DNA from: a virus
Lineage: Duplodnaviria > Caudoviricetes
Virus record (IMG/VR): IMGVR_UViG_3300023284_000540
Location: 1 to 55,083 of that record
Length of the DNA stretch: 55,083 bases
Direction: 5' to 3' (one strand)
The notes beneath the pieces are model-generated. The model ran no database searches, was not told the DNA's origin, and saw nothing but the letters and a program-made list of their open reading frames with translations. The position numbers were made by a program, and so were the translations under genes. Positions 2,552 to 50,797 of this stretch are shown here, one piece after another; within the stretch, counting starts at the first letter, position 1, and each line of letters starts with the position of its first letter.

Positions 2552-2843
2552 TCATCTCCTTCCAAAGTGTAATGATTACATCTCCATGACACGGCCCAGG
2601 CTTGCACCAGCAGCCTAGTATGGCATCAGCGGGCAATTCCCTGATCTCAATCAATATTTTTGGGTCATTAAGCGCGTCCAACTCGAACCCAGTTATGGCT
2701 TCCTCAACTGACCCCACCACTACAACAGGCTTACCTCTAACTGTGGAGAACTTGGTACTTTTATTGGTGTATCTATTGGCTAGGGATGAAGGCCTGCCTA
2801 TGTAGTGGGTGTACTCAGAGTATCTGCAATGTACAACTTTCAT
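2526..2843 (-). CDS. DUF4326-like protein
   Basis: VVHC...YIGRPS...LGCWCKPGPCHGDVI signature. Confidence 0.85.
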   Translation of the reverse strand: MKVVHCRYSEYTHYIGRPSSLANRYTNKSTKFSTVRGKPVVVVGSVEEAITGFELDALNDPKILIEIRELPADAILGCWCKPGPCHGDVIITLWKEMNEPQRLYP

Positions 2844-3160
2844 GATCTCATCAACTCCATGTGATCATGGCCGGGTTCCCAACCTAAAGGCTTGAAAGTT
2901 ACAATGACATTCTTTCCCATCTGTAGTTTGAACCCTTTCTCCTCAGCCGCTTCCTTTATAATTTCCCACTCATGGCGGCCCAGCCATTCCGTAAAAATAT
3001 AAGTATCCATATGTAGTCTGCATATGGCTTCCCCTATAAGGACGGTAGGTCTGTCAGTCTCTACCATTTCATCACTCATCCCCTTGGTTCTGACCGTGGG
3101 TATCTCTATGACAGGTATGAACTTCTGAGGATACCTACAGTTAGGATAGTTGCATAGCAT
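2840..3160 (-). CDS. Hypothetical protein with Cys/His motifs
   Basis: CxxxxC ... CRLH; start placed at MLCNYP after a GGGAG RBS. Confidence 0.55.
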   Translation of the reverse strand: MLCNYPNCRYPQKFIPVIEIPTVRTKGMSDEMVETDRPTVLIGEAICRLHMDTYIFTEWLGRHEWEIIKEAAEEKGFKLQMGKNVIVTFKPLGWEPGHDHMELMRS

Positions 3161-3425
3161 CTTTCTCCCTCTTGGCTGCCTGCTCATACTGTACCTTCTC
3201 TGCAACATGCTTGAGATGGTTCACAGCGGATATGATTTGCTTTATTTGGTCCCCTTGACCGCCTCCTTTATATAAGTATTTGCGGTAAAGGGTAGGGTCC
3301 ACGATAGGGCCTACCGTCTCGGCCATATTAACGGCATTCAACATTTCCTCTGTGGGGACCAAACAAGCCACTCTAGCTATCATCAGAACCATGTCCAAGG
3401 CGACTGCGTACTCTGTTGATTTCAT
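3141..3425 (-). CDS. Hypothetical protein
   Basis: ATGA-coupled to the upstream ORF. Confidence 0.6.
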   Translation of the reverse strand: MKSTEYAVALDMVLMIARVACLVPTEEMLNAVNMAETVGPIVDPTLYRKYLYKGGGQGDQIKQIISAVNHLKHVAEKVQYEQAAKREKDAMQLS

Positions 3426-3607
3426 GGCACCTTCTCTGTATATATTCTCTCCAGGATATCGATCTGCTTATCTGACAAGTGACCAGACCTCTCCAATTGA
3501 TCGAACACACTAGGCAGAAACTCATTCTTCTCCCAATGAGTCAGATTGCGGCCCTGCTCAAGGCAGTCATCTATCCATCGTGTGAGGGTGTCTTGGTTGT
3601 ATCGCAT
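3422..3607 (-). CDS. Hypothetical phage protein (LTxWE..FL...LSxKQ..L family)
   Basis: Motif typical of small phage proteins; operon packing. Confidence 0.7.
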   Translation of the reverse strand: MRYNQDTLTRWIDDCLEQGRNLTHWEKNEFLPSVFDQLERSGHLSDKQIDILERIYTEKVP

Positions 3608-3792
3608 GTGTTCATCATTAGTGAGATGCCTAATGGGTATCCTGGCATGTCTTCAATAGAGCCGAAACCCCCACCTGTAGGATAACTCCCATCTCTGGTC
3701 AATGTTACTGCACAGGCTGATGATTCAAGCATATCTTTAACCATTTTAAGTATCTGATCCTTCTCAAACTGTGTCATCTCAAACTGTGTCAT
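3571..3792 (-). CDS. Hypothetical protein
   Basis: ATGA overlap with the stop of 3789..5153; starts with a 15-bp tandem duplication encoding MTQFE-MTQFE. Confidence 0.45.
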   Translation of the reverse strand: MTQFEMTQFEKDQILKMVKDMLESSACAVTLTRDGSYPTGGGFGSIEDMPGYPLGISLMMNTCDTTKTPSHDG

Positions 3793-5153
3793 GTATCCCC
3801 CCATCTCTCTTGCGGAACCTTCCTTACCTTGGATATCATTCTCTTGAGTAAAGGATACAACCTCAATGTAGAGTCAGAGTCACGGCAGGCGTAGTTGATA
3901 ACCTTGTCGAATGGTACATGGGTTATACACTTGCCAGGATATAGCCCGGCCACTTCCTCTATTGAATCATGCTGCATCTCCCAGTTACCCCAGGATTTGA
4001 ATACATCCTTTTCAGGGTTGTTATCGTAGTCAGTAAAGAATCTTTTTAACTTAGTCTTCATAGACTGAGGTCTGTACGACTTCCACTTCCCTTGTTCATC
4101 TCTTACTAGCTCTTCATCAGGTCTAGGCCAGTCCAATCTATAGGCATCCCTGAAGTACTCCAGGACCTTGGGCAATGAGTAAGGAGTAACTAGGTCGTCA
4201 AAGTCCAGCATGTCCATCCCTAACTCTCTGTAAGCTAAGGCTTTAAGCCCCTGTGGCAGGTTGCCTAGATGGTAGGCCATGACCATAGTATCGACTACTT
4301 TTTTGTGACGAATGTGGAGTCCCATTTTAGAAATAGGAAAGTAGTCATACATCCAATTATGGAATATTATGGGACCCTCCCATTTATTCAAGGAGTCCTG
4401 GAATGCGGCTAGAAGATCAGGTCTGTTGGAGCGTATCAGCCTACCCTCACCTGGATGGTTGGAAAAGGTCAGGCAAAATGGTTCTCTCTTTCTAGTGCTC
4501 TCAGTATCTATAGATAAAGGTTTGTCATACTCCATGAAGAAAGTACCTAGCTCTACCTGATCTTTAATCTCTGAGTAGTCAGGTTCAGGGTATTCGTCCT
4601 GCGGCACTGCTAGCCTATCAGTCAAGAATCTCTTGAGCCTGTACCAGTCTGTCCTGATCTGTAACATCTTCTTGGGCTCATGAATGCCTCTCGCCGGATG
4701 GTACATAGGGAATAGCCAGCCAAATGCCGAGCGCCGTGGTATGCCGTGATGCAGGTCTAAATCTATACTCGGATCAATGGCCCTGCAAGCGAATGCTCCC
4801 ATAGGAATAACAAGCCTATGATCCCTTTCTAGTTCTTTGCTGAGGTGGAATTGAGAGCAGGACTCTAGCAATTCTATGTCCCTCGGCTTACCAGAATCTA
4901 GCTTACCTCCGCGTCCAGGAGGGAGGCATCTAATGGCATTATCGAACCGGCAGTTGGCTCTGCGTAGTCCAGCCAAAGGGAGATAGTGGGCGTTCACTTC
5001 CCATCCTGTCTTGCCAGTAAATGGATGACCGCTCCTATCCTCATCCTTGCCAGGACCCTCTCCAAGGAACAATAAGTCACTATCTTCCGGCCCATCTGGG
5101 GGAACAACGTTATTGATTCCGGGACACTCAGGGCACCGCTCTATTAAAGACAT
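3789..5153 (-). CDS. Family 4 uracil-DNA glycosylase domain fused to a PolA-type 3'-5' exonuclease (N-terminal half of an SPO1-like DNA polymerase)
   Basis: UDG4: CPEC, GEGPGKDED..GHPF.G..G, NAIRC, YHPA. Exonuclease: ExoI IDTE, ExoII HNWMYD, DTM, ExoIII YACRD. Confidence 0.9.
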   Translation of the reverse strand: MSLIERCPECPGINNVVPPDGPEDSDLLFLGEGPGKDEDRSGHPFTGKTGWEVNAHYLPLAGLRRANCRFDNAIRCLPPGRGGKLDSGKPRDIELLESCSQFHLSKELERDHRLVIPMGAFACRAIDPSIDLDLHHGIPRRSAFGWLFPMYHPARGIHEPKKMLQIRTDWYRLKRFLTDRLAVPQDEYPEPDYSEIKDQVELGTFFMEYDKPLSIDTESTRKREPFCLTFSNHPGEGRLIRSNRPDLLAAFQDSLNKWEGPIIFHNWMYDYFPISKMGLHIRHKKVVDTMVMAYHLGNLPQGLKALAYRELGMDMLDFDDLVTPYSLPKVLEYFRDAYRLDWPRPDEELVRDEQGKWKSYRPQSMKTKLKRFFTDYDNNPEKDVFKSWGNWEMQHDSIEEVAGLYPGKCITHVPFDKVINYACRDSDSTLRLYPLLKRMISKVRKVPQERWGDT

Positions 5154-5319
5154 CCTTTTGTCGTCTCTTGTCTAAGGCTAATGCAAGATTCTTGATATTG
5201 AACACACCATCCAGGGTGAATGTGCCGTCACTCTCCTTATACACATAAGGACTAAATACCTCTTGGTCCTTAGACTGGGAGATGAGCCATTCAGCTATGA
5301 ACTGCTCTGTGCCTTTCAT
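5128..5319 (-). CDS. Hypothetical protein
   Basis: AGGAG RBS; operon context. Confidence 0.55.
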   Translation of the reverse strand: MKGTEQFIAEWLISQSKDQEVFSPYVYKESDGTFTLDGVFNIKNLALALDKRRQKDVFNRAVP

Positions 5320-5349
5320 GATTGACTCCTAGACATACTACTTGGAAAT

Positions 5350-5777: not shown

Positions 5778-5998
5778 TTTGTCTCCTTATCCCTTTCCCC
5801 CCACACAGATATTGACCCATCGCAGTGGCCAGCATCTTCATTGGAATATTCAAATCTCCATTGTGATTTGCGCTTACCGTCCTCTAATGGAAAGTGGTCC
5901 ATGCCAAAAATGTCACCTATGCCCCCTAGCAAGTTCTGTAGAGCAACAGCCATATCCTTAGTCGTAATACTAACCTCAATTCTCATCCATATCTTCAT
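5774..5998 (-). CDS. Hypothetical protein
   Basis: Start MKIWMR overlaps the ERCC4 gene stop (ATGA). Confidence 0.5.
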   Translation of the reverse strand: MKIWMRIEVSITTKDMAVALQNLLGGIGDIFGMDHFPLEDGKRKSQWRFEYSNEDAGHCDGSISVWGERDKETK

Positions 5999-6726
5999 TT
6001 GCTGTTTATCTCCTTCACGATATTCTGGGCCGTCTTGACTCCTATTCCTGGCACCCTCAACCAATCTAACTCATCTGCTTGCGCCAAACTGCTGGCCTTC
6101 TTGAATAGTCTCTCAGCATCTATGCTGTGCTTGACACCCACTCCTGTCAGCTGAGCCGCCCATCTCCTGACTAGACTAGGCTTGCCTCTCATGTCAGGTA
6201 TAGCTAACTTCTGTGTTTCCAACAAGCTAGTATGATTTTCCCACTTCTTCTGGAAGTAGTGATAGCAGTTGCAGATGTTAACTGCTGTATGCTCCAGAGT
6301 CATACTATATGTAATGATTACACCTGAAAGTGATACGCTGAGGAGGTAGCGATAGAGCTTGGAGTACATAACTCTCTGGCTACGATAAACTAGGGGGAAC
6401 CAGCCAGCACCTTTGTTGGTTATTAGCAGACCCTCCCAATTAGGGCCGGAGCCAGCGGCCCAGACACCCTCTATGACTAGGAGACTCTTGTCATACATAT
6501 TCATCATACCTGGCCTCTGGTGAGCAACGTAACGGGCATCGTCAATGCAGTTGAGCATGTCATGTATAGTCTTGCGCTCTATTCCTATAGAAATAATACC
6601 TTTAGGTCCCTTGCCTTCGAAACATACATCACCGAACTCTAGCTGTGTTAGCTCAGCATGGACGCCTAGTCTTTTGATTGGGGGGAGCAGTTCCGCGCTA
6701 CCCACGCGAGAATCGATGAAGATCAT
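5995..6726 (-). CDS. ERCC4/XPF-family structure-specific nuclease with C-terminal helix-hairpin-helix
   Basis: IDSR, GD, IERKTIHD, IEG; HhH motifs LTGVG and VPGIGVKTA; ATGA-coupled start. Confidence 0.88.
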   Translation of the reverse strand: MIFIDSRVGSAELLPPIKRLGVHAELTQLEFGDVCFEGKGPKGIISIGIERKTIHDMLNCIDDARYVAHQRPGMMNMYDKSLLVIEGVWAAGSGPNWEGLLITNKGAGWFPLVYRSQRVMYSKLYRYLLSVSLSGVIITYSMTLEHTAVNICNCYHYFQKKWENHTSLLETQKLAIPDMRGKPSLVRRWAAQLTGVGVKHSIDAERLFKKASSLAQADELDWLRVPGIGVKTAQNIVKEINSK

Positions 6727-7238
6727 TTGCCGGATTGCCTCCATGCGAATCCCTTCTTTGTCAGCAGCCACCACGTAAACTCCTTATCCTTCGGGTTTGG
6801 GTTTGGTTGGGCTTCTACATAACCATTATTAACTAGTTCATCAAGGGCTATGTATTTGTCCCCAGCAGTATCAGTAAGCGTTCCACAGGGCCATATTCCC
6901 TTCAGCAGATGCTTGGCTGCTTCAGATAGTTTATCCTTCGGATTGGGTTGGGCCTTATGGATGGCTGGTGTCGAAAGGTCTGCCCATGTAGACCTATCCG
7001 AAGCCACCTTCTCGGTGCTGACTATAGGGGATTTAACCAGCGCCATCTTTAGCCTTTCCAGTTTGATCCACTCCACCAAGGACCAGCCACACACATCCAC
7101 CAATTCTGACTGAATCTCGGCTATTCCGTCTATATGGCTGATATTAAACGACTTGTCTCCATAGGTGCTGTGACCTGTTTCCATCTTGGAGTAGAGTTGC
7201 TGCATGAAGTCCATGAAGTAAGGCTTGAATGTTGACAT
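6723..7238 (-). CDS. MazG-like/all-alpha NTP-pyrophosphatase-like N-terminus fused to a small winged-helix-like C-terminal domain
   Basis: G..TYG...EIQSELVD pattern; C-terminal LVNNGYV...WLLTKKG. Confidence 0.5.
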   Translation of the reverse strand: MSTFKPYFMDFMQQLYSKMETGHSTYGDKSFNISHIDGIAEIQSELVDVCGWSLVEWIKLERLKMALVKSPIVSTEKVASDRSTWADLSTPAIHKAQPNPKDKLSEAAKHLLKGIWPCGTLTDTAGDKYIALDELVNNGYVEAQPNPNPKDKEFTWWLLTKKGFAWRQSGK

Positions 7239-8317: not shown

Positions 8318-8321
8318 GCAT

Positions 8322-8594
8322 TTATCTATTATTCCTTCCCTGTGGCGTTTGCTTATGCAATCTCTTCTTCATTGAAGATAACTCGCTGCCAATTTTCCAT
8401 ATCAGGGTCAACTTTGCCAGTTCCTCTTTCTTCAATCTATCTATGTCGTTCCTTAATCTGGTATTGACACTGGTCAGCACCTCTATGCTGATTGTCACCA
8501 ACACCAGACACAGAACAAGTGACCAATGATAGTAACTAGCTATAATAAGTAGTAACACCCCAGTCAGGGATAACCGAACGAGCCATACAATCAT
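8322..8594 (-). CDS. Small membrane protein (2 TM)
   Basis: Two hydrophobic segments; ATGA coupling. Confidence 0.55.
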   Translation of the reverse strand: MIVWLVRLSLTGVLLLIIASYYHWSLVLCLVLVTISIEVLTSVNTRLRNDIDRLKKEELAKLTLIWKIGSELSSMKKRLHKQTPQGRNNR

Positions 8595-9220
8595 TTCCCC
8601 TCCTTCTGATCTCTGTGCTCTGTCAGCAGCGCCCAGTTGTCATCTATCTCCTTCTGGGTGAACTCAATAGCCCAGCAACGTAGCTGGGGTCTTATCGGAT
8701 ATGAATAATCTCCACACAGAAATAATATGTGCATCCTTGCCCACCTGGTATTCTTACCCTTACAGTATGCTTTAACCTGGGACATCCACATCCATTCATT
8801 ACTCAGGTCTCCTACGGTCTTGGTACTTTTGTATGTGACCTTACACTCGTGGACAATGAGGGTATGGTTCCTGTACTTGCCCTGAGAACGTGTAATGATT
8901 ACATCCACAGACTCTCCATCTGGGGTCATATAAACCCCGTCAACTTGAATTTGACCAGGATGATCTACGACACCCAGCTCACCCAGGAAGGTAGGGATAT
9001 AGTATTCCTCCCAAGCCAGACCTATATTCATCCTGAGTACAGCCACGGGATCAGTTACTTGCCTCCCATCTACCAGAGACAACTCCTCTGCCCATTCAGG
9101 CTTCAGGATGCCTACCTCTGTGGCTATAGACCTGATAATATTGGAGATATGCACTCCCTCCGATCTGGGTACCCTAGACTTTGGCAGGGTCAGATTCACC
9201 GGGATTTCATTGACTATCAT
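8591..9220 (-). CDS. PD-(D/E)xK nuclease (Cas4/RecB-like exonuclease)
   Basis: TPDG...HECK...QVKAY. Confidence 0.8.
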   Translation of the reverse strand: MIVNEIPVNLTLPKSRVPRSEGVHISNIIRSIATEVGILKPEWAEELSLVDGRQVTDPVAVLRMNIGLAWEEYYIPTFLGELGVVDHPGQIQVDGVYMTPDGESVDVIITRSQGKYRNHTLIVHECKVTYKSTKTVGDLSNEWMWMSQVKAYCKGKNTRWARMHILFLCGDYSYPIRPQLRCWAIEFTQKEIDDNWALLTEHRDQKEGK

Positions 9221-10560: not shown

Positions 10561-11508
10561 TCAATCTCCAGGCACTATCCTGCCGGAATCAGACAGAGAG
10601 AACCCTATCTCACCAAGCAGTCCAGACAAATCATCATCCGTCGTGAAGTACGAATCAATAACTGCCTGAGCCATCTCGGTTCCATCTGCATCATTGACAG
10701 CTTTGAAGACTCCTGTCTTGAGTATCAATTTGGCGCAACCTTTAGGACTCTTGGCTAGAACAACGGATGCCCCACTCTTGGCAGATTCAAGAATGGCTTC
10801 ATCCCCTGCCAACTCATCAGGCGCGGGCTGTGGAGCTGCTTTGGCTCTCGATAGCGCGGCAGTCCTACTTGCCGTCACACCTGTTGATCTGGTGGAAGCC
10901 TTGGGGGGTGACCCGCCTGGTATCCCTCCACCTTCTTCCCAAGGCTTACCATCTTCCTTTATCTCTGAAACCACGGCTATGGTCCCTGGCCTGCGGATTT
11001 CAGCAGCAGCCTCACCCGTTTGCGCCGATGAAGCAAACCCTTTCCTTTCTTCAGGTTCCGGCACATTTGATATATGGACCCAGGTGCCTTCCAAAACGGA
11101 AATGTCATTCGTGAATATCCCCTTCGGTAACCCACAATCGGTCAGGGATTTAAGGAAGTACATCCAATTAGTCTGGTTGCTGAGAGTCATGCCCAAACCA
11201 CCAGGGATAGCAACGATACCCTTACCATTCTCAGGGTTCGGTGTAAATGACTTGTGAGCACTGGTCCCCATCGAATAGAACTGTTTCCTTTCCTTCTCAT
11301 CAAGATCAGTGAGAGATTGAAATGTAATCATTACACCAAGCCTGGACGGTCCCTTGAGTTCCCCCCTCTCGTTCTGTGCCTGGTACATCTCAACACCTAA
11401 CTCCATCATGCAATAGTCACCCTCTGGTAGACCACCACCAGCGACATACATATCAGTGTCGCCAAAGTTCACTGTGTCTACTACAGCCTTCCTCCTTTGT
11501 AATGCCAT
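10561..11508 (-). CDS. Putative single-stranded DNA-binding/replication protein
   Basis: LPEGDY motif, beta-rich N-terminus, low-complexity linker; lies between the helicase and exonuclease genes. Confidence 0.5.
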   Translation of the reverse strand: MALQRRKAVVDTVNFGDTDMYVAGGGLPEGDYCMMELGVEMYQAQNERGELKGPSRLGVMITFQSLTDLDEKERKQFYSMGTSAHKSFTPNPENGKGIVAIPGGLGMTLSNQTNWMYFLKSLTDCGLPKGIFTNDISVLEGTWVHISNVPEPEERKGFASSAQTGEAAAEIRRPGTIAVVSEIKEDGKPWEEGGGIPGGSPPKASTRSTGVTASRTAALSRAKAAPQPAPDELAGDEAILESAKSGASVVLAKSPKGCAKLILKTGVFKAVNDADGTEMAQAVIDSYFTTDDDLSGLLGEIGFSLSDSGRIVPGD

Positions 11509-11718: not shown

Positions 11719-11894
11719 TGAGATAACTTTGTTTCACCTTTCGCAGCTTCCTTTTCCATTAAATCCTTGTCAAAGTTGTCATGCAGCTCACCAAAAAGAG
11801 CCCTCCATACCTCTGATCCTGTAGTGTTTTCAGCTATTTTAATGAGGTAAGTAAGAATATCTATCTTGGCTTTGAGTTCAGCAATGTTGTTCAT
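11715..11894 (-). CDS. Hypothetical 59 aa protein (not in ORF track)
   Basis: MNNIAELKAKIDILTYLIK...; ATGA overlaps at both ends fill the gap exactly. Confidence 0.55.
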   Translation of the reverse strand: MNNIAELKAKIDILTYLIKIAENTTGSEVWRALFGELHDNFDKDLMEKEAAKGETKLSQ

Positions 11895-13459
11895 AGTTTC
11901 CTTAACGGTTGTGGCATGTTGTCCAGCATACGAAAGAACTTATGAAACGACCTTGGCGCAAGATGCCCATAGCGTGGCAGGAACCAATCCATATGACTAT
12001 CCACCATGATACTCTCACACATATCATCCCTGCTTCGCATACCTCTGCCGAATGCCTGAACCATATATTGCATAGCCAGGTAAGGCCCATACTCATTATC
12101 ATCTGATTGTCTCGCCTTGATGATCTTAGCCCTGCCATCAGGGAACGGAATCTTACACATAAACTGCCACTCACAGGTATCCATAGGAAAGTCGTAACCA
12201 GTGCCTACAGAAGGGCTTACGAGAGTAGTGCCTGGGGGGGAATCCTTGAATTTCCTAATAGTATCACTCATGGACCTTCCTCTCTGGTTTAGTATCATAG
12301 AGCTGGCGTATCTGCTGGATTCCAAGACCTCCTGCTGGCGGGCATAGCTGATAGTGTGGATGATGCCTTTTCTATCTCTCCGCCTGGCCATGAACTGATC
12401 TAGCCTGACCCACAGTGGTCTCAAATCTCTGGTTCGTGCATCCACCCGCACAGGAGGATTGGCAGGAACATAGTAAATAGGACAACGATCAGGATCAAAT
12501 CCGCTTGGAAACTCCTTGAAATCAGAGTCCTTCTGGGTTACACCTATCATGTAAAGTGTTTTGGGTCTTAGGGTTGCGCTAACTACAACGATCTTAGGCA
12601 TCTTCAAGAGCAGGGCCGCCTCTGCATACTGCGTCGGTCGGATAGGATCGAACTGATATCCTCCATCAATCTCATCCACTATCCAATTATTAGCCGTGCA
12701 TGTGGCCAGTATGGTCAACCTTGCGCAAAGCAGTCTCATATGGCTGAGATGTTTTACTAGACTTAGTGGAGGATCAGGGGAATACTTTATCTTCTTCGCG
12801 GATTCAACTCTTTCTTCCTCGGCTATGTACCGAACACGATCAGACCAGTGCTTCCACTCATTCATATTACTTCTGAACCTATCAGCAGGAAATGGAACCT
12901 TTAAGGTTTCCTCAATTTCCTTATGATTAAGGACTACTTGCATAGCTCTAGCTAAAGCGTCAGGGGCATCATGTCCTTCATCAAAGATAACCTGCTGGAA
13001 ATGCTCCATGCCCAGACCATATCTGCGGCAAGATGTCCATTTGTCGTAGTTTGTGACCACCAGCTTAGACGCTGCGGCTCTCATTTGAGCTTTGCTATAC
13101 GGACAGAGGACGGTCCCCTGAGATTCACACCGGGAAATATGACCGTCTTCGCAACTATAGCTCGGCCTAAGTTCACAGTTATAGTTATTGCGGCCTCTGA
13201 TGTCCACCAGACCTATACTGCTATAGTCTTGGATCAATTGATCTTGTAGACCTTTGGAGCTGGTGACGATACAGGTAGGTAACTTACTTAGTAAGGCGGC
13301 GGCCACATAAGCGGGAGATTTGCCAAATCCGGTAGGGGCTGACAGGGCTATCACTCTCTTCTGAGATGTAATCATTACATCCACGGCCTCCTCCTGACCG
13401 GTTCGCCAGCTATCAAACTTCTCAGGCAGGCCGCATTCGTGTGGGGCGGGTGTTTTCAT
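11891..13459 (-). CDS. dinG: DinG/XPD-family SF2 helicase with Fe-S cysteines
   Basis: Q motif RTGQ, APTGFGKS, RGRNNYNC..C..C..CPY, DEGH, SAT, GYDF, KIPFP, QAFGRGMRSRDD. Confidence 0.9.
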   Translation of the reverse strand: MKTPAPHECGLPEKFDSWRTGQEEAVDVMITSQKRVIALSAPTGFGKSPAYVAAALLSKLPTCIVTSSKGLQDQLIQDYSSIGLVDIRGRNNYNCELRPSYSCEDGHISRCESQGTVLCPYSKAQMRAAASKLVVTNYDKWTSCRRYGLGMEHFQQVIFDEGHDAPDALARAMQVVLNHKEIEETLKVPFPADRFRSNMNEWKHWSDRVRYIAEEERVESAKKIKYSPDPPLSLVKHLSHMRLLCARLTILATCTANNWIVDEIDGGYQFDPIRPTQYAEAALLLKMPKIVVVSATLRPKTLYMIGVTQKDSDFKEFPSGFDPDRCPIYYVPANPPVRVDARTRDLRPLWVRLDQFMARRRDRKGIIHTISYARQQEVLESSRYASSMILNQRGRSMSDTIRKFKDSPPGTTLVSPSVGTGYDFPMDTCEWQFMCKIPFPDGRAKIIKARQSDDNEYGPYLAMQYMVQAFGRGMRSRDDMCESIMVDSHMDWFLPRYGHLAPRSFHKFFRMLDNMPQPLRKL

Positions 13460-13974: not shown

Positions 13975-14343
13975 TTAGACTATCTTTTTTAGGAGAGGTA
14001 TCCTAGGAATCCTGGGCCTGCCTGCTTTGAGTCTAGCATCATCCTCGGCTTTTTCACGCTTGAGCCGGGTGTCGTACTGAGAAATAATTCTCTTGTTCCT
14101 AGCTCTCAAGCCAGCCGTTCTCTGATCCAGGGTATCCAGGAACGCCTCCAAACCCATGCCAAGGGCAGCGGATACCTTCCTTGCGTATGCGAGACTAGGC
14201 TGCCTCTCGCCAGAGAATATCCTTGAGAGCCAGGATTGGTCGAGACCTTGAGTCCTAGCTAAACCCAACAAAGAGATATACTTACCATCAAATAATATGC
14301 TCTGGCGGGTAGGCTTCAGCTCCCAAGGTCCGCTCTGTGCCAT
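13975..14343 (-). CDS. XRE-family HTH transcriptional regulator
   Basis: LARTQGLDQSWLSRIFSGERQPSL..ARKVSAALG. Confidence 0.88.
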   Translation of the reverse strand: MAQSGPWELKPTRQSILFDGKYISLLGLARTQGLDQSWLSRIFSGERQPSLAYARKVSAALGMGLEAFLDTLDQRTAGLRARNKRIISQYDTRLKREKAEDDARLKAGRPRIPRIPLLKKIV

Positions 14344-14364: not shown

Positions 14365-14405
14365 TGTAATGATTACACTTTAGCATGACCAAGTATGTCT
14401 GTCAA
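14365..14405 (-). promoter_or_regulatory. Promoter TTGACA-N17-TAAAGT (extended -10) with a palindrome covering the predicted start site
   Basis: -35 at 14405-14400, -10 at 14382-14377, palindrome at 14365-14377. Confidence 0.8.
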
Positions 14406-20812: not shown

Positions 20813-21240
20813 GCCTTAGAGCATTCTCTAGTTAGCACTCTTTCCAACCCGTCCGGACCAGCAAAGCAAGCCCACACCCCATCCATGCCGACTATACCCA
20901 GAGCCATGCCGGATTCGAGTGTAATCATTACACAATCTCCCCTGCGGGCGAACAGGATAGGGACCTCCCGAATACCATGTTCCTCCGCGACCATGCTATA
21001 GAAGGCCACGGGTCCACTATCTCCAACTGCTTCATTTATAAGGACATGGCCCTCCTCCTGCGTGGAATACAAGCCTCGCACAGACAGTGCTAGATCGACC
21101 CCGGTGATAGCTAATACAGCATCACATGCGAACAAGGCACAATCATTCACACCTATCTGAAATGGGATGTGCATTTTATCCGAGAAGAATTGAACCAGGC
21201 GGCTCTCCCAGTCAGGGAAACGAATGAGGGAATTAGGCAC
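20797..21240 (-). CDS. DUF6950/NlpC-like tail assembly protein
   Basis: RFPDWESRL, NDCALFACDAV..ITGVD, ARRGD; GTG start after AGGAGG. Confidence 0.8.
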   Translation of the reverse strand: MPNSLIRFPDWESRLVQFFSDKMHIPFQIGVNDCALFACDAVLAITGVDLALSVRGLYSTQEEGHVLINEAVGDSGPVAFYSMVAEEHGIREVPILFARRGDCVMITLESGMALGIVGMDGVWACFAGPDGLERVLTRECSKAWRIG

Positions 21241-21255
21241 TATCCCTCCTGTGCT

Positions 21256-21292
21256 TACGTGAGATTGTAGCATGAGAATTTTAGTCTGTCAA
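21256..21292 (-). promoter_or_regulatory. Internal promoter TTGACA-N17-TACAAT with extended -10 and CTCACGTA
   Basis: -35 at 21292-21287, -10 at 21269-21264. Confidence 0.7.
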
Positions 21293-22568: not shown

Positions 22569-22585
22569 GATGTAATCATTACACC

Positions 22586-27706: not shown

Positions 27707-27804
27707 AAATACATCCAGGTCAGTATAACAATGCAGTCTTTTGAATTACTATGCTTATTAGACATAGGCTCATACCTAATTTAGAACACAGCAAAGTGTA
27801 ATGA

Positions 27805-29802: not shown

Positions 29803-29806
29803 TACA

Positions 29807-31593: not shown

Positions 31594-31629
31594 AGGATTC
31601 CCCCCCTAGAGTGTAATCATTACACTTTT

Positions 31630-34140: not shown

Positions 34141-34178
34141 TGTAAACTCCTCTCATTTGTAATGATTACGTTACTAAC

Positions 34179-36264: not shown

Positions 36265-36317
36265 TTGGTCCTCCTAATAGACCGGGAATACAGTGTAATG
36301 ATTACACTATTAATAGG

Positions 36318-38321: not shown

Positions 38322-40034
38322 TTAGCGATTACTAGCGCCAGGTAGTGGGGAACCTGAAGGTTTAGGTTTGTTTAAAGCGGCCTTCCTAGCTGCATCCGCC
38401 TGATCCAGTGCTGCCTGACCTAGATCAGCCTTACCCTGAGCAGCCTTTTTATCATCTTTAGCCACATCCTTGGGATCGATAAATCCTTGTCTCACGGGCT
38501 CAGGATAAAACTCCTCTACTAAGCCCTCAATATTTCTCTCTCCCATAGCAGTCACCAGTAGCTTGAATAGGTATCTCCTATCGGGGATTATGCCCTCAGC
38601 CTGGCTACCTCCCAGAGTAGCCGCTTGCACCACAGCCCGGACTCGATCTACGACATCCCTCTCTAAAATGTTCGGGAAGTCGATAACTACGCCCAAGGAT
38701 TTGCCGTTTGGAGATGTAATGATTACATTCGTACCGCTGCCAAAATCATCCCTGGAAACGGCTGCTCTGAAGCCAGCCTTATGCAGCTTGCCGAGCGGGG
38801 CCGCAGCAGACCATTCTTTCAACTTCTCACACATATGAAGAATCACACACAGCCACATATTCTGCCTGGCGACCATCTTTAGCTCTGTGGGCCGATCCAG
38901 GGTAGAGGATGTAGCAAAGTTGCCAAGATTGGAGTCTCCAAAGAAGTGTTCGGGCAAATCCGACCCAGCAGCAAGCATTGAACGAAGTGCCCTAGCTTCA
39001 TCCGGCCCTGTGGTGTGTCCAGCAGTTTTGATAGCAGATATTTTAGTATCACCTGCCAGCGTAGCCCAAGCAGCCGTGTTAGCAGGAGGATTGGTGTCCA
39101 ACGCATTGCCTGTGGAGATGGCCGTATTCAGCTTACTCTTGGCAGCAGCTACTCCTTTTTTACCAGCTAAGCCGGATATCTGCATAGCCAGTCTGGAGTA
39201 AGCCTTCAAGATCGTGGCGAAGTTCTCAAGGATACCTTTATAGGCCGTGGCCCAAGGCATGGCGGAAAATAGCTCAGGAATACCAAACTGCATCTGCGAC
39301 AGGCCGCCCGTGGATACATGAAGCACTGGAGAATCCCAGAGAATACGGATACCCTTGAAACTGGAGGGTTTAGCCCTAGTGCGGGGGTTATAGTCAACAT
39401 CAGGATACAGTACCCTGCTAGCCTCTACACCATTCTTGGAAGGGATATGACGCTCGTAAAACCAAGGCTCCTGAGCATCATCAGGATTGCTGATAATACT
39501 TTGTATTTGATCGAATGGCAGAAGTCTGACCCTGGCACTCCCATTAGACTTATTACGGAAGAACACAAAGAAAGTATTACCATCCAACCTCTGATCCTTC
39601 TCCCTCTCCGGCCATCCCTTATCCCCATTGCCTATGATCCTTTGATTCTTACGGTCTGTGAAGAAGTCCCGAATGATTTCATCCACATCCTCATCATCAG
39701 CCTTGATCTTAACCCCGCCCCCCCAGACATAGAGTTCTTGCACAGTGACAGCTCTCTTGATAAGGGGGTTCACAAGGTACATAATCCTGGATAAAGCAAC
39801 CATCTTGCGGACGGTATCCCGGTCAAGATTCCAGCTACCAAGAGCAGTAGTCAGATCGGTCCAGCCCATAGCATCCACGGACAGCTGAATATCAGCTAAG
39901 CTGGCGGTCTCCTGGATGGGGGCTTCCTGAGATTTGACCATAGCCTCTTCAGCATTATTTGCTGATTCCATTAGACTTCTGGCACCCATCCAGAAGCCAG
40001 CCAGAGCCCCGACAAATTTGTCACGAATGCCCAT
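38322..40034 (-). CDS. Portal protein
   Basis: NPLIKRAV, DGNTFF, DLPEHFFGD...N.AT...LDRPT; position upstream of the protease and MCP genes. Confidence 0.85.
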   Translation of the reverse strand: MGIRDKFVGALAGFWMGARSLMESANNAEEAMVKSQEAPIQETASLADIQLSVDAMGWTDLTTALGSWNLDRDTVRKMVALSRIMYLVNPLIKRAVTVQELYVWGGGVKIKADDEDVDEIIRDFFTDRKNQRIIGNGDKGWPEREKDQRLDGNTFFVFFRNKSNGSARVRLLPFDQIQSIISNPDDAQEPWFYERHIPSKNGVEASRVLYPDVDYNPRTRAKPSSFKGIRILWDSPVLHVSTGGLSQMQFGIPELFSAMPWATAYKGILENFATILKAYSRLAMQISGLAGKKGVAAAKSKLNTAISTGNALDTNPPANTAAWATLAGDTKISAIKTAGHTTGPDEARALRSMLAAGSDLPEHFFGDSNLGNFATSSTLDRPTELKMVARQNMWLCVILHMCEKLKEWSAAAPLGKLHKAGFRAAVSRDDFGSGTNVIITSPNGKSLGVVIDFPNILERDVVDRVRAVVQAATLGGSQAEGIIPDRRYLFKLLVTAMGERNIEGLVEEFYPEPVRQGFIDPKDVAKDDKKAAQGKADLGQAALDQADAARKAALNKPKPSGSPLPGASNR

Positions 40035-40049
40035 GTAATGATTACACTC

Positions 40050-42486: not shown

Positions 42487-42527
42487 TTCTGTCTCCTTTT
42501 ATCCAAAATAAAGTGTAATGATTACAC

Positions 42528-44667: not shown

Positions 44668-44697
44668 AGTGTAATCATTACATATTCCCCCTGTCAA
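44668..44697 (-). promoter_or_regulatory. Leftward packaging/late promoter TTGACA-N18-TACACT whose -10 lies in a palindrome
   Basis: -35 at 44697-44692, palindrome at 44670-44682, -10 at 44673-44668. Confidence 0.6.
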
Positions 44698-44711
44698 CCC
44701 CGAAATTAAAC

Positions 44712-44740
44712 TTGACATACATCCTTATTATCGTTATTTT
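44712..44740 (+). promoter_or_regulatory. Rightward promoter TTGACA-N17-TATTTT; probably a leaderless mRNA for the regulator
   Basis: ATG at 44747 sits at the expected +1; no RBS. Confidence 0.6.
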
Positions 44741-44746
44741 AGCTCC

Positions 44747-45358
44747 ATGAACGGCTCAAATGGCCAAAATAGTGAAAATAGAGAGGTTATACGTTGCAAA
44801 AAGTGCAATTTGAACCAATTTATCACTATAAGTAGTCTCTGCCGCCGTTGCAGATACTCACTATCCCCTGTAAAAGAAATACCTGAGAAAACCCCCCAAG
44901 AAGCTATACCAAAGCCTATCCCCCTCCGATCACACTTCTTCCCGGAGCCGGGATCAAGGCCATTCTGTCCTAAGCCCCCTAACTTCGGCTCCGTTCTAAG
45001 AGCACTCCGGGAAGATATCGGCTACAATCAAGTCCAGATGTCCCACATTATGGGCATCAAGCGCCCTTACTTGAACAGGGTAGAGGGCGGGTTCATCAAC
45101 CCTGGTCCCTCTACCCTAACTAGGCTGTGTAGCGCCCTTCGCACTACTCTGTCCGATCTACTTTACTGCTATCAAAACTGGCCAGGCTCCTCTAAATCGG
45201 CTCAATTCCACGCTCAGACTTTGCAGATATTGGGCACATTTCGGGATTTGGGTACAGATCAGAAGCAGCGGGTCTTGCGTATGGTCAAAGATGCTCTCAA
45301 CTCGCCGCAGGAATCACCTAGAGTACTAGAAGAATCTATACCGTCTGGGGACAACTAG
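44747..45358 (+). CDS. Zn-finger plus XRE HTH regulator
   Basis: REVIRCKKC.L.QF.T..SLCRRC followed by LRALRE..G.NQ.QM..IMGIKRPYLNRVEGG..NP. Confidence 0.88.
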   Translation: MNGSNGQNSENREVIRCKKCNLNQFITISSLCRRCRYSLSPVKEIPEKTPQEAIPKPIPLRSHFFPEPGSRPFCPKPPNFGSVLRALREDIGYNQVQMSHIMGIKRPYLNRVEGGFINPGPSTLTRLCSALRTTLSDLLYCYQNWPGSSKSAQFHAQTLQILGTFRDLGTDQKQRVLRMVKDALNSPQESPRVLEESIPSGDN

Positions 45359-45509
45359 ATGTATACTTACAGAGCAATCAGCATTCTGGGCCACTTTCTC
45401 TCCCTCCTGGACCACACAGACCCCAAGAATGGCTGGGCTAGAGTCAAGCTGGAACACGCCATATGGCATTTAGTCAGGGGAATGTAATCATTACACATAG
45501 GAGACTACA

Positions 45510-45734
45510 ATGAAAAGTACAGGCTACCAACCCTGGGAGATTACAACGGAAGTTAAAGGCTATCAACCCAAAGGCCCCGTACCTGACAATCCTAAGCCCC
45601 CTAATGCCGGACCGTCCGCCGTGTACCCTACAGAAGATCGAAACGCATGGATGCTCAAGCGCAAGGTTTGCACCTGCCCCACGCCTGATTGTGGTTGCAT
45701 GGAATGCTGCATTCTACGAGACGGCACCCTGTAA
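45510..45734 (+). CDS. Hypothetical Pro/Cys-rich protein
   Basis: AGGAG RBS; GYQP repeats; Cys-rich C-terminus. Confidence 0.55.
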   Translation: MKSTGYQPWEITTEVKGYQPKGPVPDNPKPPNAGPSAVYPTEDRNAWMLKRKVCTCPTPDCGCMECCILRDGTL

Positions 45735-46160
45735 CACGGTTACCATTTAGATGTTAGAGTCAATAAACCTCCCCCCCCCCCGGCCTGGCAGTACTGGGAG
45801 TCCCATCGCTCGACTGTGACTCCCAGCCCGCCTATTACGACTAGGACCACCAGTACCATGACACGCCGACCGGCACGCTGACGTATACCTAATGTATATA
45901 CAACGTATATGCAACGTATAGACTCAGTATATACAATGATACAATGTATACACGACCAGGTCCTAACAGTACCAGGGACCACAGCACGTAGCCTGCCAAA
46001 CTGAGTACTATGGGGGTCCTAGTCCAATAATTAGGACCACTAGTACCACCAACACCAGAATGTAATCATTACACATTGGGACCTATCCATACTAGTCGGC
46101 CTACTGGTCTCAAAAACAAATCAGGGCTTCCAGTACTAGGTATGCCTAATATACAATCTC
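45735..46160. other. Non-coding repeat-rich region (C11 run, GTATA/TATAC repeats, GGACCA/AGTAC repeats); candidate origin or packaging site
   Basis: C11 at 45771-45781, AT-rich repeats at 45882-45953, palindrome at 46061. Confidence 0.45.
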
Positions 46161-46626: not shown

Positions 46627-46672
46627 ATAACCCCTGCTACACACAGCAGAGAAAGGATAACAACTAAAAATT

Positions 46673-46930: not shown

Positions 46931-47028
46931 CACCCTTTATTGAAACCCCGATAGAGGCATTGCGCGGGTGTACAACTGGGAACTGTGCGCCTAGCGGAAT
47001 GTAATCGTTACACAAAAGGGCAATCTAA

Positions 47029-48129
47029 ATGGCTTCGTGGAACATAAGAGAGGTTTTTCGTTTCCGCAACGGCACTTACCAAACCTTTCCGCAAGAGGTA
47101 TGGACTAAGTTGAACCAGCATAATGTGATGCTTTGCTGGGAGCATTATATACACCTTTCCACGCAACGCCCTGACATGGTGGCGTACACTCAATCGGACG
47201 CGCACGGTGAAGAGGACAGGCAAACATTAATGCGATTCGGGCGATATCTAAAGCGATACCATCCTCTGCTCTCTGACAAACAAGTTGAGGAACTAGCAGG
47301 ATTGCTTAGGACGCGCAAAGATGATAGCAAGCAGAACGGTGGCGGGTTGCACTTGGCAACGGACAGGGAAACCATTAAGGAAATATTTGAGACTCCCCTA
47401 CACGCCGGCGAGAGTGCTCCGGTCTCCTGTATGTGTGAATTTGATACCTGGACAAACCCACCCTACATGGTATACGCGGGATCGCCGGATGTAGCTATTG
47501 CGTATCTGCGCGAATCATCCGGCATTATAGCCCGAACGGTAGTGTCAACAAAGTATAAATGGTGGGTGAGGATGTATACAACGGGCGGCGATGATCACGA
47601 GTACCTCTGTAGCAGACTACGTGAGGCACTTCACAAAGCAGGTTACGAGAGGAGAGGGTCATTAAAAGATTGCAGATTATCGGTGCTGGAAGAGGAAGGA
47701 CATTACGCACTTCCCTATATTGACGGGAGTGCTTGGTACGTATATCAGAACGGCGATTATTGGGTTGTAACGGATAATGATGAAGAGGGGGAGTACTCCT
47801 GTCAAGAAACGTCGGGCAGGGGTGATGAGGTAGAACGGACTCACTGCGCCAATTGTGAGGAAATAATCTCGCAAGGGGATGAAGAGTACCCCACAGTCGA
47901 TGGCACCGTTTGTTCAGATTGCATCGAAAACTACATCCGCATAAATGACTATAATAGGGATGGCTATTTTCCCGCAGATGACTGTTCCGAAGGTTGCGAT
48001 GGCGAGTACCATCTAAGCAGAGATTTAGAGAGAGATTGCCACGTAACAGATTGCACCTGCTTCGAAGACCAGCAAGAGCTAGACCTAGAATCCAACACAG
48101 ATGGGGGAACGGAAAGTGAAACGGTATAA
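47029..48129 (+). CDS. Hypothetical protein with C-terminal CxxC repeats
   Basis: FGRYL, SCM, LPYIDG, CANC...CSDC, acidic tail. Confidence 0.75.
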   Translation: MASWNIREVFRFRNGTYQTFPQEVWTKLNQHNVMLCWEHYIHLSTQRPDMVAYTQSDAHGEEDRQTLMRFGRYLKRYHPLLSDKQVEELAGLLRTRKDDSKQNGGGLHLATDRETIKEIFETPLHAGESAPVSCMCEFDTWTNPPYMVYAGSPDVAIAYLRESSGIIARTVVSTKYKWWVRMYTTGGDDHEYLCSRLREALHKAGYERRGSLKDCRLSVLEEEGHYALPYIDGSAWYVYQNGDYWVVTDNDEEGEYSCQETSGRGDEVERTHCANCEEIISQGDEEYPTVDGTVCSDCIENYIRINDYNRDGYFPADDCSEGCDGEYHLSRDLERDCHVTDCTCFEDQQELDLESNTDGGTESETV

Positions 48130-49191: not shown

Positions 49192-49217
49192 ACTGTAATC
49201 ATTACAAGAGGGGCTAT

Positions 49218-49409
49218 ATGAGCCTAGTAGATGAAAATCCCGAATGGTTCAACAATTGGATTGAACTGCAAGCTATCCTAGGCAGGTTTGGCGTGAGTGC
49301 CCAGGAGCAGGTTGTGGCAGGAGAGATAACCGGGAGCGACTTATGGGAAGAGCACCCGGACTTGTACACTGAGGCAGAGACTACTTTCTTAGAAAGACTC
49401 GTGATGTAA
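49218..49409 (+). CDS. Hypothetical acidic protein flanked by two palindromes
   Basis: GAGG RBS; its stop codon lies inside the palindrome at 49405. Confidence 0.55.
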   Translation: MSLVDENPEWFNNWIELQAILGRFGVSAQEQVVAGEITGSDLWEEHPDLYTEAETTFLERLVM

Positions 49410-49435
49410 TCATTACAAGATAAGGGGAGGGAATA

Positions 49436-49648: not shown

Positions 49649-49681
49649 CAAGGTTTTACAATCATGCTAAAATCTCACGTA
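49645..49681 (+). promoter_or_regulatory. Promoter TTGACA-N17-TAAAAT with extended -10 and CTCACGTA
   Basis: -35 at 49645-49650, -10 at 49668-49673. Confidence 0.75.
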
Positions 49682-49713
49682 GTTACACAGAAGGACCCAC
49701 ACACACCAGCCAG

Positions 49714-49939
49714 TATGATTCCAGTGACTCAGCCAAGCCGCTCTGAGTGTCGCATTTGCGGCTGCAAACGGGTTGCTTACGCTGTAAATAATTTGGGCTA
49801 TTGTGTCAGCCACAAGCGAAAAGCAGTCAGAGCCATGAAAATCCGGCTGAGTGTCAAGTTTCGGGTTACAAAATCAAATCGGTTTAATGACCCTACTGAC
49901 CCGGATAATCCTAACAACAATCCTGATATGAGAGGATAG
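49714..49939 (+). CDS. Small Zn-finger protein
   Basis: CRICG...YCVSH; start approximate (MIPVTQ, downstream of the promoter). Confidence 0.5.
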
Positions 49940-50266
49940 ATGATGGTGGAATTCAAGCAGCATCCTAGGTTTCCCAATATAGTATGCTCATCTGACGGGC
50001 GCGTTTTCATCCATAAGAAAGGATGGAGGAGAGGCGGACCAGACGGCATCACTTACCTAGCTATAGATTGGTGGGTGGGTCCGCGCTCGGACAAAGTTAA
50101 CAGGATTGTTCAGTACATACACAGACTGGTCGCTGAGACTTTTGGAGAAAGTATCATGAGCATGGATGTGGATCACCTGGATTTTAACAAACAAAATAAC
50201 AATTGTCATAATCTGAAAGCTAGCCATGCCTCCGATAACAGAGGCAGAAGTAGTAAAGGCAAATAG
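49940..50266 (+). CDS. HNH endonuclease (NUMOD4/HNH_3-like)
   Basis: SSDGRV, YIHRLVAETF, VDHLDFNKQNN...NL...N. Confidence 0.85.
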   Translation: MMVEFKQHPRFPNIVCSSDGRVFIHKKGWRRGGPDGITYLAIDWWVGPRSDKVNRIVQYIHRLVAETFGESIMSMDVDHLDFNKQNNNCHNLKASHASDNRGRSSKGK

Positions 50267-50306
50267 TTGTTAACTCGTTTACTTTCTATAGTTTAAGGAG
50301 GTCAAG

Positions 50307-50579
50307 ATGAATCAGGGTGTTGCGATAAAGGTGCATCTTTCAGAGGAGGACCTAATTGCTCTCCGAAGTATACAGAGGCGGATCGGGGGCAGCCGATTGG
50401 TCCCAGGGCCGTCAATACATTCTCTGATCCTCAAAGCCATACGGCTATATTATACCGAGTGCCTTGAGGGGGTTGATGGGGTTGGTGCCGAGAAGGCGCT
50501 GGGAGATAGCTGGGAAGAGGGTTGGCGCAATGACATTGACAGAAAGCACCGATACCCAGGAGAGGAGCCTACGCAATGA
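50307..50579 (+). CDS. Putative ribbon-helix-helix DNA-binding protein
   Basis: Beta-alpha-alpha pattern IKVHLSEE...SLILKAIRLY; AGGAGG RBS. Confidence 0.55.
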   Translation: MNQGVAIKVHLSEEDLIALRSIQRRIGGSRLVPGPSIHSLILKAIRLYYTECLEGVDGVGAEKALGDSWEEGWRNDIDRKHRYPGEEPTQ

Positions 50580-50797
50580 ATATACCCATAGATCAGGCCC
50601 TATTATGCGTCAATTGTGAGTGCATAGTTGACATTGACCCTGAGTCCAAGGGTACGCGCTGCATTCATTACGGGAGCAGAGGTGTAGTTCTCTTGGCCAT
50701 TCTCCTGTCAGAGAGCAAGGCATGGCCCCATGATGTAATCATTACACCCTTAAGCGAGACTTTAGCTGTTAAAACTGACAGGGAAAAGGAGAAATAA
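50576..50797 (+). CDS. Small Zn-ribbon-like protein
   Basis: LCVNCE...RC..YGS; ATGA coupling. Confidence 0.55.
   Translation: MNIPIDQALLCVNCECIVDIDPESKGTRCIHYGSRGVVLLAILLSESKAWPHDVIITPLSETLAVKTDREKEK

Follow-up and report, generated by a model that had tools for sequence, protein, structure and literature searches.

The stretch of DNA analysed here, hereafter the window, is the complete 55,083-bp virus record IMGVR_UViG_3300023284_000540 of a tailed phage, in which one short palindrome recurs from end to end. DNA-level selection on these palindromes is real and strong, a conclusion that is strongly supported by the codons and peptides found where they lie inside genes. As judged from sequence comparison with related phages, the palindromes are probably where a dimer of an orphan ParB-family protein encoded by the phage itself (50991-52265), the putative reader, is loaded.

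The 11-mer core of the palindrome, GTAATSATTAC, occurs 26 times, against 0.03 copies expected and a maximum of one among 100 dinucleotide shuffles. The full unit is the 13-mer TGTAATSATTACA, of which 25 exact copies, two copies with one mismatch (34158 and 47000) and none with two mismatches were detected, and 0.97 copies would be expected at up to two mismatches. A/T-rich flanks with a purine/pyrimidine pattern lengthen the unit to about 19-21 bp, roughly aaaR-TGTAAT-S-ATTACA-Yttt. The centre is C or G in every copy, and no orientation rule was found: read along transcription, the central base is C in 16 of 26 copies and G in 10. The 27 sites are distributed over 55 kb with a mean spacing of 2.1 kb. 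This spacing is even, with a coefficient of variation of 0.59 compared to 0.95 under random placement (P 0.004) and 0.97 in a null model of 16 random gene junctions and 10 random coding positions (P 0.002). Spacing is likewise even in the related genomes G001 and G008 (P 0.002 and 0.0008), and weaker or non-significant in G002, G003 and shorter fragments.

Although non-coding DNA makes up only 6.5% of the genome, 16 of the 26 copies are not wholly intragenic (binomial P 3e-13), and 13 of these 16 overlap the next start codon or are located within 30 nt of it, filling intercistronic gaps in the middle of operons. Strong sigma-70-like elements are overlapped by only two of the 26 copies. One lies in the divergent control region, over the spacer and -10 of TTGACA-18-TACACT (44670-44682; element 44697-44668, minus strand), and the other adjoins the -10 of the promoter-like TTGACA-17-TAAAGT upstream of an Xre-type gene (14365-14377; element 14405-14377, minus strand), an operator-like placement. 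Since there are only two such overlaps, the palindromes are not promoters and mostly not classical operators; a sigma-70 promoter reading was rejected on the same count, and promoter-like elements exceed shuffles in only one of three segments. A preliminary description of this DNA had suggested that site density matters beyond promoter position, and both the even spacing and the low number of overlaps with strong promoter-like elements back this idea. Two further candidates were dropped, namely a hairpin or terminator, as an AT-rich stem of 6 bp closed by a loop of 1 nt is expected to be unstable, and a site of the NtcA or CRP type, as the spacing is GTA-N5-TAC and not N8.

Ten copies lie inside genes, and all ten were found in the open reading frames (ORFs) given in the preliminary description, in the frame GTA-ATS-ATT-ACA, with every listed peptide reproduced. 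On the minus strand the copies encode DVIITL in the DUF4326 gene (2568-2580, codons 89-92 of 2526-2843; the copy lies upstream of the next gene's start, 16 nt off), GVIITY in the ERCC4 nuclease gene (6310-6322, aa 152-155 of 5995-6774, a position common to relatives), DVIITR in a gene for a 209-aa nuclease-like protein (8891-8903, aa 107-110 of 8591-9220), where orthologous sites match the motif of each relative, GVMITF in a 315-aa gene (11323-11335, aa 59-62 of 10561-11508), DVMITS in the helicase gene (13367-13379, aa 28-31 of 11891-13459), where the position is kept in 8 of 14 orthologues aligned there, CVMITL in the DUF6950 gene (20920-20932, aa 115-118 of 20797-21273), SVIITS in a 117-aa gene (26340-26352, aa 72-75 of 26211-26564), DVMITL in the head protease/scaffold gene (37770-37782, aa 160-163 of 36786-38258) and NVIITS in the portal gene (38715-38727, aa 437-440 of 38322-40034). 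The tenth, DVIITP, is encoded on the plus strand in a 73-aa ORF (50734-50746, aa 54-57 of 50576-50797), about 175 bp upstream of a promoter-like element that precedes parB (50921-50949). Family matches agree with the names DUF4326, ERCC4, helicase, DUF6950, portal and head protease/scaffold; the names 'exonuclease' (the 209-aa protein), 'SSB-like' (315 aa) and 'gpT' (117 aa) are accompanied by no significant family match, the first having just a weak sub-threshold match to a restriction-endonuclease family. In a structural model of the nuclease-like protein, residues 105-110 with the VIIT peptide are placed in a strand, in a segment where the confidence score of the model, pLDDT, is below 50, so that the beta-strand location put forward in the preliminary description is no more than a possibility.

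Because the palindrome is identical on both strands, it can be read in only three frames. The first, xTG-TAA, holds a stop and can only end a gene. As had been described, it does so in three cases, supplying the stop codons of 27805-28659 (minus; copy 27797-27809), 49218-49409 (plus; copy 49405-49417) and 53426-53746 (minus; copy 53418-53430, 10 nt ahead of the next start). The second, TGT-AAT-SAT-TAC, gives C-N-[H/D]-Y, and the third, GTA-ATS-ATT-ACA, gives V-[I/M]-I-T. Judged by amino-acid composition (proteome of 17,248 residues), V[IM]IT is 24 times likelier than CN[HD]Y. With a stop in one frame and these odds against another, the occurrence of V-x-I-T in ten of ten intragenic copies needs no further explanation, so that the claim of an invariable V-[IM]-I-T holds in the window as an effect of frame and does not extend to relatives, which also use CNDY: the gene for the uracil-DNA-glycosylase (UDG)-exonuclease encodes it at one orthologous site in G001, G002, G005 and G006. 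When greedy ORFs no shorter than 150 aa were counted in nine genomes with the same motif, the V.IT frame had 43 sites and the CN.Y frame 13, a ratio that is approximate because of greedy ORF errors such as a miscall at G000 8892 and several doubtful CN.Y cases near ORF 5' ends.

That each of the ten copies uses the codons GTA-ATS-ATT-ACA is correct but tautological for a fixed DNA word. The frequency of the peptide is more telling: V[IM]IT occurs ten times in the proteome of the window compared to 0.38 expected, in all ten cases with the motif codons and never encoded otherwise, and from codon usage alone these codons would be expected with a probability of 0.005-0.015 per peptide. ATA is the commonest isoleucine codon (40%), yet it is never found at the motif centre.

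An exact-word scan of viral contigs yielded further records with many copies. According to blastp comparisons, these motif-dense phages have only a replication/regulation module in common, including the 122-aa Xre-type helix-turn-helix (HTH) protein, a 154-aa protein and the 424-aa ParB-like protein, and their structural genes are unrelated. In a search with the ParB-like protein, the records with full-length homologues were all palindrome-dense (33 copies in G005, 18 in G006, 6 in G007 and 38 in G008), and a record matching only the ParB N-domain at 28% identity held no copy. In a 1.4-Mb metagenome-assembled genome (G010) all 21 copies are located on a single 45.3-kb phage-like contig (C89, L151) that encodes a ParB homologue. 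Among metagenome loci with ParB, 21 of 23 contain at least one ATSAT copy; of the other two, the 2-kb L269 has none and L281 has a variant.

To this sample relatives of the helicase were added, of which the best 80 of 252 were kept and the exact word was counted in 30 of those 80. It was present in 11 of the 30 records, in none at a helicase identity of 38% or lower, and was lacking in four close relatives with 49-62% identity (G011, G015, G020 and G021). ParB homologues are encoded by six of the 30 (G013, G015, G017, G020, G021 and G022). De novo counting of palindromes revealed that each apparently motif-less close relative has its own GTA-N5-TAC variant: GTAAC-S-GTTAC in G011 (9 copies in 17 kb), GTAGT-S-ACTAC in G015 (18 copies), GTAAA-S-TTTAC in G020 (41 copies) and GTA[TC]T-W-AATAC in G021 (9 copies). 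Variants were also found in G022 (GTAAT-W-ATTAC, 33 copies), G017 (a hybrid, GTAAA-S-ATTAC, 12 copies) and G003 (GTAAY-S-RTTAC, 23 copies), and TGTAATGCATTACA is listed as well among the variants in relatives without the exact word. L281, a 6,161-bp metagenome contig, has six copies of an even-length 14-bp form, TGTAAT-GC-ATTACA, in which the half-sites stand one base pair further apart; the ParB helix of this contig has the sequence PMSNAMLNIY. Such a palindrome dominates all 15 records of at least 13 kb in which the ParB homologue is full-length. Over every examined record with a full-length homologue, the prevailing form is GTA-N5-TAC, save for one record with GTA-N6-TAC.

With these variants at hand, the same codons were compared between phages. 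Among relatives at about 50-64% protein identity, sites occur at the same codons in the helicase, nuclease, ERCC4 and UDG-exonuclease genes, in genomes that write only 40-59% of their identical residues with the same codon. All six helicase orthologues with the ATSAT motif agree in their codons for V, I and T, compared to 46% of identical residues sharing a codon elsewhere. Further, the peptide is dictated by the palindrome of each phage. At the helicase position VMIT or VIIT is found in ATSAT phages, VIVT in G003 and VTVT in G011; at the nuclease position VIIT, VMVT (G003), VTVT (G011), VIFT (G017) and, in G022, VIIT written as GTA-ATA-ATT; and at the ERCC4 position VNFT in G020. Thus, VTVT follows from GTAACSGTTAC, VMVT and VIVT from GTAAYSRTTAC, VIFT from the AT/TT hybrid and VNFT from GTAAASTTTAC. 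Homologues of the helicase, the nuclease and ERCC4 without a site carry other, mostly hydrophobic peptides (LCLE, VLLT, KMLH, KCLM, SLLN, FLRT; TVIS, TVII, RVLL; VVVI, VIVI). The earlier proposal that selection at the DNA level overrides codon choice is borne out by these comparisons, in which V-[IM]-I-T proved lineage-specific and neither the same peptide and codons in site-free homologues nor freely varying synonymous positions were seen. As the peptides of relatives change with their own palindromes, selection on the DNA overrides the choice of amino acids as well as that of codons.

Since the motif-dense phages share only the replication/regulation module, the copies in the G010 bin are confined to a phage-like contig, and close relatives have their own variants, the reader of the palindrome appears to be phage-encoded. 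ParB co-occurrence, matches to the ParB family and the tracking of the site by one residue of the predicted recognition helix point to the ParB-like protein as this reader. Its gene (50991-52265, plus strand, 424 aa) encodes a ParB/Srx N-domain, an HTH, a coiled coil and a C-terminal helical domain. In alignments the N-domain shows box II GxxRxxA (GAYRLVA) and box III ENxxRE (ENMERE). The HTH matches PF17762 (HTH_ParB) with 23.5 bits, above the cut-off of 22.6, and has the conserved LxFLxLPKxxQ signature. The structural model (mean pLDDT 75) contains HTH helices at 139-145 and 162-173 and a coiled coil of about 130 residues. A profile search matched Spo0J 1vz0 (E 1.5e-5 over residues 35-140) and also Noc, and with Foldseek the model matched structures of Noc, of ParB and of KorB, with E values from 4e-8 to 8e-7. 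On the grounds of its N-domain boxes and HTH, the product of 50991-52265 is a member of the ParB family.

The start of the predicted recognition helix, S161-N-S-F164-I-N in the window protein, conforms to SN[SA]-X-x-N, which is almost invariant among the homologues, and X tracks the inner bases of the palindrome. It is F (about 20 sequences), I, L or M with AT, H with AA (G017 and G020) and W with GT or YT (G015 and G021). When the columns of ten shared protein families were scanned, three separated the three motif classes. Residue 164 of ParB was the only one of them located in a DNA-binding element and with chemically coherent residues, and the other two lie in hypervariable stretches.

Several observations weigh against ParB as the reader. 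The Pfam model of the ParB N-domain gave no match to the protein at E 0.01. Box II reads G-x-[YVH]-R instead of GERR, the first arginine being replaced, which makes binding of cytidine triphosphate (CTP) and sliding uncertain. Neither a ParA partner nor a KorA-like one was identified, with no search aimed at KorA/TrbA. The covariation rests on four variant genomes, and as the ParB tree does not resolve their branching, the H and the W pairs may each go back to a single event. Helices with L or M accompany several variants, namely a central W, a central GC and relaxed outer bases, for which residue 164 by itself gives no explanation. Moreover, no ParB was seen on the contigs of six motif-dense fragments (G012, G016, G018, G019, G023 and G029; completeness 26-59%), which fits their incompleteness.

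Were the palindromes instead read by a conventional transcription factor, the most plausible candidate would be the 122-aa Xre-type HTH protein (13975-14343, minus strand), kept with the replication/regulation module. Its dimer would bind at promoters and within operons and block transcription in a stoperator-like mode, and ParB would be a bystander of the module. The Xre-type gene is kept in most motif-bearing relatives, the copy at 14365 adjoins its own promoter-like element as autoregulation would predict, and dispersed repressor sites that co-evolve with their repressor are known in Cluster A mycobacteriophages (PMC6550527). However, the Xre recognition helix does not follow the site: phages with one and the same palindrome differ in it (QSWLSR, ISHLSM, KSYLSY, NTYLSR), G013 (ATSAT) and G017 (AA/AT hybrid) have almost the same helix, and no column of the Xre alignment separates the motif classes. 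In addition, G020, with 41 sites but only 78% complete, yielded no Xre homologue. We consider this explanation unlikely.

The exactness of the copies (25 perfect and none with two mismatches) is more in keeping with enzyme sites than with operators, and the palindrome might mark positions for nicking, methylation or base hypermodification by the phage, with ParB at most a targeting or activating subunit. The window indeed encodes several nucleases and an HNH protein, and in other phages ParB-like proteins activate DNA-modifying enzymes such as thymine dioxygenases (bioRxiv 10.1101/2025.08.14.668559). Those ParBs are described there as having no DNA-binding domain, whereas the window ParB has an HTH with a residue that covaries with the site. 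No methyltransferase or dioxygenase was detected among the scanned proteins, which did not comprise every ORF, and nicking of both strands of a palindrome would break the genome. A role of the sites as enzyme targets is quite improbable. Finally, that a host global regulator, a ParB/Noc-like, defence or repair protein reads the palindrome and the phage exploits or evades it is very improbable, for although evenly spaced self-marking words such as Chi and uptake sequences exist in bacteria, the variants differ even between close phage relatives and follow a protein that the phages themselves encode, and the G010 bin has no copy outside the phage-like contig, which is weak evidence as the binning may be wrong.

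In the explanation that we favour, a ParB dimer would bind each palindrome and, by analogy with KorB and Noc, CTP-gated clamps would likely load at each site and slide outward. With one site per 1.5-2 kb, evenly spread, ParB could occupy the whole phage chromosome. Selection would maintain the number and spacing of sites, and so each intercistronic gap, however small, would be used for a site; failing a gap, a site would be written into a gene, in the only comfortable frame and at a place where a short hydrophobic peptide is tolerated. The two promoter sites, in the divergent control region and at the Xre gene, are probably operators for direct repression. The remaining sites would serve coverage, for which global silencing, roadblock, compaction or compartment formation, genome organisation and self-marking are candidates. 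As protein and sites co-diversify between related phages, each lineage would have a private site, and this private, diversifying specificity points to selection against cross-talk between related phages. The 'spreading clamp' considered in the preliminary description would by this analogy gain a concrete candidate in the orphan ParB.

By its likenesses, the window system resembles KorB-OB of the IncP plasmid RK2 or Noc and its binding sites (NBS) in Bacillus, but it is phage-borne, with sites inside genes and with lineage-specific words. RK2 has about 12 OB operators. KorB is a ParB-family protein with an HTH that acts as a CTP-gated sliding clamp and silences promoters up to 1.5 kb away, and OB is a 13-bp palindrome with 6-bp arms, a central G/C and the core TTTAGC-G-GCTAAA (PMC11790492). 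Both systems have a 13-bp palindrome with a central S and dispersed sites, some at promoters and some remote, and the model of the window ParB matched KorB 8qa9 in Foldseek (E 7.9e-7). They differ in that the phage has no ParA/IncC (none in five genomes), that ten of its 27 sites lie in coding sequence, and that its sites are evenly spaced and diversify in specificity between close relatives; box II of the window ParB is G-x-Y-R, and the profile search gave no direct match to KorB. Noc, the top structural and profile match, is likewise a ParB paralogue without a partition function that uses scattered palindromes; it loads at many such sites across the chromosome and spreads with CTP (PMC8429893). 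In contrast to the window protein, Noc belongs to the host, where it blocks division by tethering DNA to the membrane. Its sites are not known to co-diversify among close relatives.

Canonical ParABS, including that of the prophage P1, shares a ParB N-domain and an HTH reading an inverted repeat, but has few parS sites clustered near parB and needs ParA. The window system is not such a partition system: its sites are dispersed through the genome, and ParA is absent. ParA (PF13614, AAA_31; other ParA models were not searched) was found in none of five genomes that are at least 92% complete, the window and four relatives, with 14 of 14 control genomes positive. Tyrosine integrase (PF00589) and serine recombinase (PF00239) were each detected in none of the same five, and no LG[KR]GL-type ParA-interaction motif is visible in the N-terminus of the ParB-like protein.

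Among phages, dispersed sites that co-diversify with their reader are also known as the Cluster A stoperators (L5, Bxb1), 20-30 repressor sites throughout the genome, most of them not at promoters, for which motif and protein diverge together between subclusters to give private specificities (PMC6550527). A stoperator is asymmetric, points along transcription and is recognised by a monomeric immunity repressor, a protein of another fold, in temperate phages (PMC9283540), whereas the window sites are palindromic and unoriented, the candidate reader is a ParB, and the integrase and ParA are absent from the five genomes. The nearest phage precedent, a descriptive one, is Cluster O of the mycobacteriophages (Corndog), in which a dyad-symmetric 17-bp repeat, TGTTCGGNNNCCGAACA, recurs more than 30 times across the genome; roughly one copy in three falls within a coding region, and the majority are away from promoters (PMC4351075). 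These phages encode a ParB-like protein and no integrase or parAB, and in the passages describing the repeats the authors drew no link between repeat and protein (PMC4351075). Common to both are many genome-wide palindromes, part of them intragenic, and a ParB-like protein; the Cluster O word is another one, with a 3-bp spacer, and the same passages report no covariation or coding-frame analysis. By tblastn the Cluster O protein has no detectable similarity to the window ParB, whose only match among cultured phages, at 25%, is to Burkholderia phage KS9. In the relevant literature found, subscription journals and supplements not covered, the exact word is absent and no phage ParB with dispersed sites is described.

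The remaining copies are placed as follows. Among the minus-strand genes, 913-925 begins the series as an intergenic copy 3 nt past the PolA stop and 13 nt ahead of the next ATG, 22571-22583 occupies the gap between the tape-measure stop and the next start, each 2 nt off, and 31612-31624 lies 5 nt past a stop and 18 nt ahead of a start. The copy at 29794-29806 provides, as had been described, a start codon, its central ATG opening 29188-29802 (minus; the product begins MITS), and it adjoins the stop of the upstream gene. That at 40034-40046 is placed between the Shine-Dalgarno sequence and the portal ATG, with its last base as the A of the ATG; 36294-36306 is a gap copy as well, upstream of the gene for the major head protein (35053-36264), and 42514-42526 lies 1 nt past the large-terminase stop, 27 nt ahead of the next start and 39 nt downstream of a promoter-like -10. 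The one-mismatch copy at 34158-34170, with G as its final base, is intergenic beside a terminator-like hairpin (34204-34185). In the plus-strand block a copy is found 14 nt upstream of the start of 45510-45734 (45483-45495), another is intergenic (46061-46073), and a third sits in a gap 2 nt past a stop and 11 nt ahead of a start (49194-49206). The second one-mismatch copy, TGTAATCGTTACA (47000-47012), is located 16 nt upstream of 47029-48129; one of its half-sites is of the AC type of G003, G011 and G013, and it may be a natural specificity intermediate.

The window has a 144-bp terminal direct repeat and thus a unique length of 54,939 bp. It represents a siphovirus-like phage with a large terminase, portal, head protease/scaffold, major head protein, tape measure and central tail fibre, a replication module of a split family-A DNA polymerase, the ERCC4 nuclease, the further nuclease-like protein and the helicase, and genes for an endolysin, an HNH protein and two Xre-type HTH proteins. 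Minus-strand genes extend from about 44.7 kb down through the record origin to 53.2 kb, and plus-strand genes from 44.7 to 53.0 kb. A tRNA scan of the window found no tRNA gene, no DNA similar to the window was found among cultured phages, and a search for relatives with the portal protein returned none.

The polymerase is split into two minus-strand genes, 929-2323 and 3789-5153, which separate a UDG-like domain and 3'-5' exonuclease from the polymerase domain; the 1.5 kb or so between them holds several small ORFs, the DUF4326 gene among them, and the split is kept in all relatives examined. At 44668-44747 two promoter-like elements stand back to back, TTGACA-18-TACACT leftward over the palindrome copy and TTGACA-17-TATTTT rightward. 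The latter ends 7 nt short of the ATG of a 203-aa Xre-type HTH protein, which has no homologue in the relatives, and would make a leaderless mRNA, comparable to some phage repressors. The plus-strand block also contains a small HNH endonuclease gene (49940-50266, plus; HNH_3, E 3e-6), which is 725 bp upstream of parB. The conserved 154-aa protein has no assigned function (54359-54823, minus); a homologue (e.g. L126:12132-12563) was found in every examined record encoding a ParB homologue, mostly within a few kb of parB, and in G002 immediately downstream of it in the same orientation.

Between G000 and G001, G005 and G008 the structural gene sets are unrelated, and the palindrome is the same at a similar density; after mosaic exchange of a module, either new sites must be acquired or they must come with a module from a phage of the same specificity class. 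The bin G010 is labelled as a Patescibacteria group bacterium, and contig C89 is probably a binned phage contig and not a prophage. Two records with only distant matches to the ParB N-domain (28-29%), G009 (L149, L150) and L256, have repeated palindromes of their own, CGAACGnCGTTCG three times in 32 kb and GTAGAnTCTAC three times in 17.5 kb, and the same logic may reach beyond the family described here.

Orphan ParBs are common in phages, and a 2025 survey that records many of them assigns them, in the relevant passages, no role in reading DNA sites (PMC12704722). The family described here offers a testable case, with a defined site, a defined candidate reader, natural variants (F/H/W against AT/AA/xT) and about 20 genomes. 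It also shows how strongly a DNA-binding constraint can act on proteins, as conserved enzymes alter two or three residues with the site (VMIT, VTVT, VIFT, VNFT). Tentatively, and with more doubt than confidence, the sites and the orphan ParB of these phages, which seem to be non-temperate, could be regarded as a private system of 'genome identity', in which ParB clamps would coat or gather only the phage's own chromosome, apart from the DNA of the host and of co-infecting relatives, and the Cluster O palindromes would be of the same kind. If so, the system may build a compartment for replication or packaging or shield the chromosome from nucleases of the phage itself and of the host, and competition between phages would drive the genome-wide re-coining of 20-40 sites together with one or a few residues of the recognition helix, even at the cost of altered enzyme and capsid protein sequences. 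A ParB that reads dispersed sites may account for the long-unexplained palindromes of the Cluster O mycobacteriophages, and would extend the idea of CTP clamps and long-range silencing from plasmids and chromosomes to virulent-looking phages.

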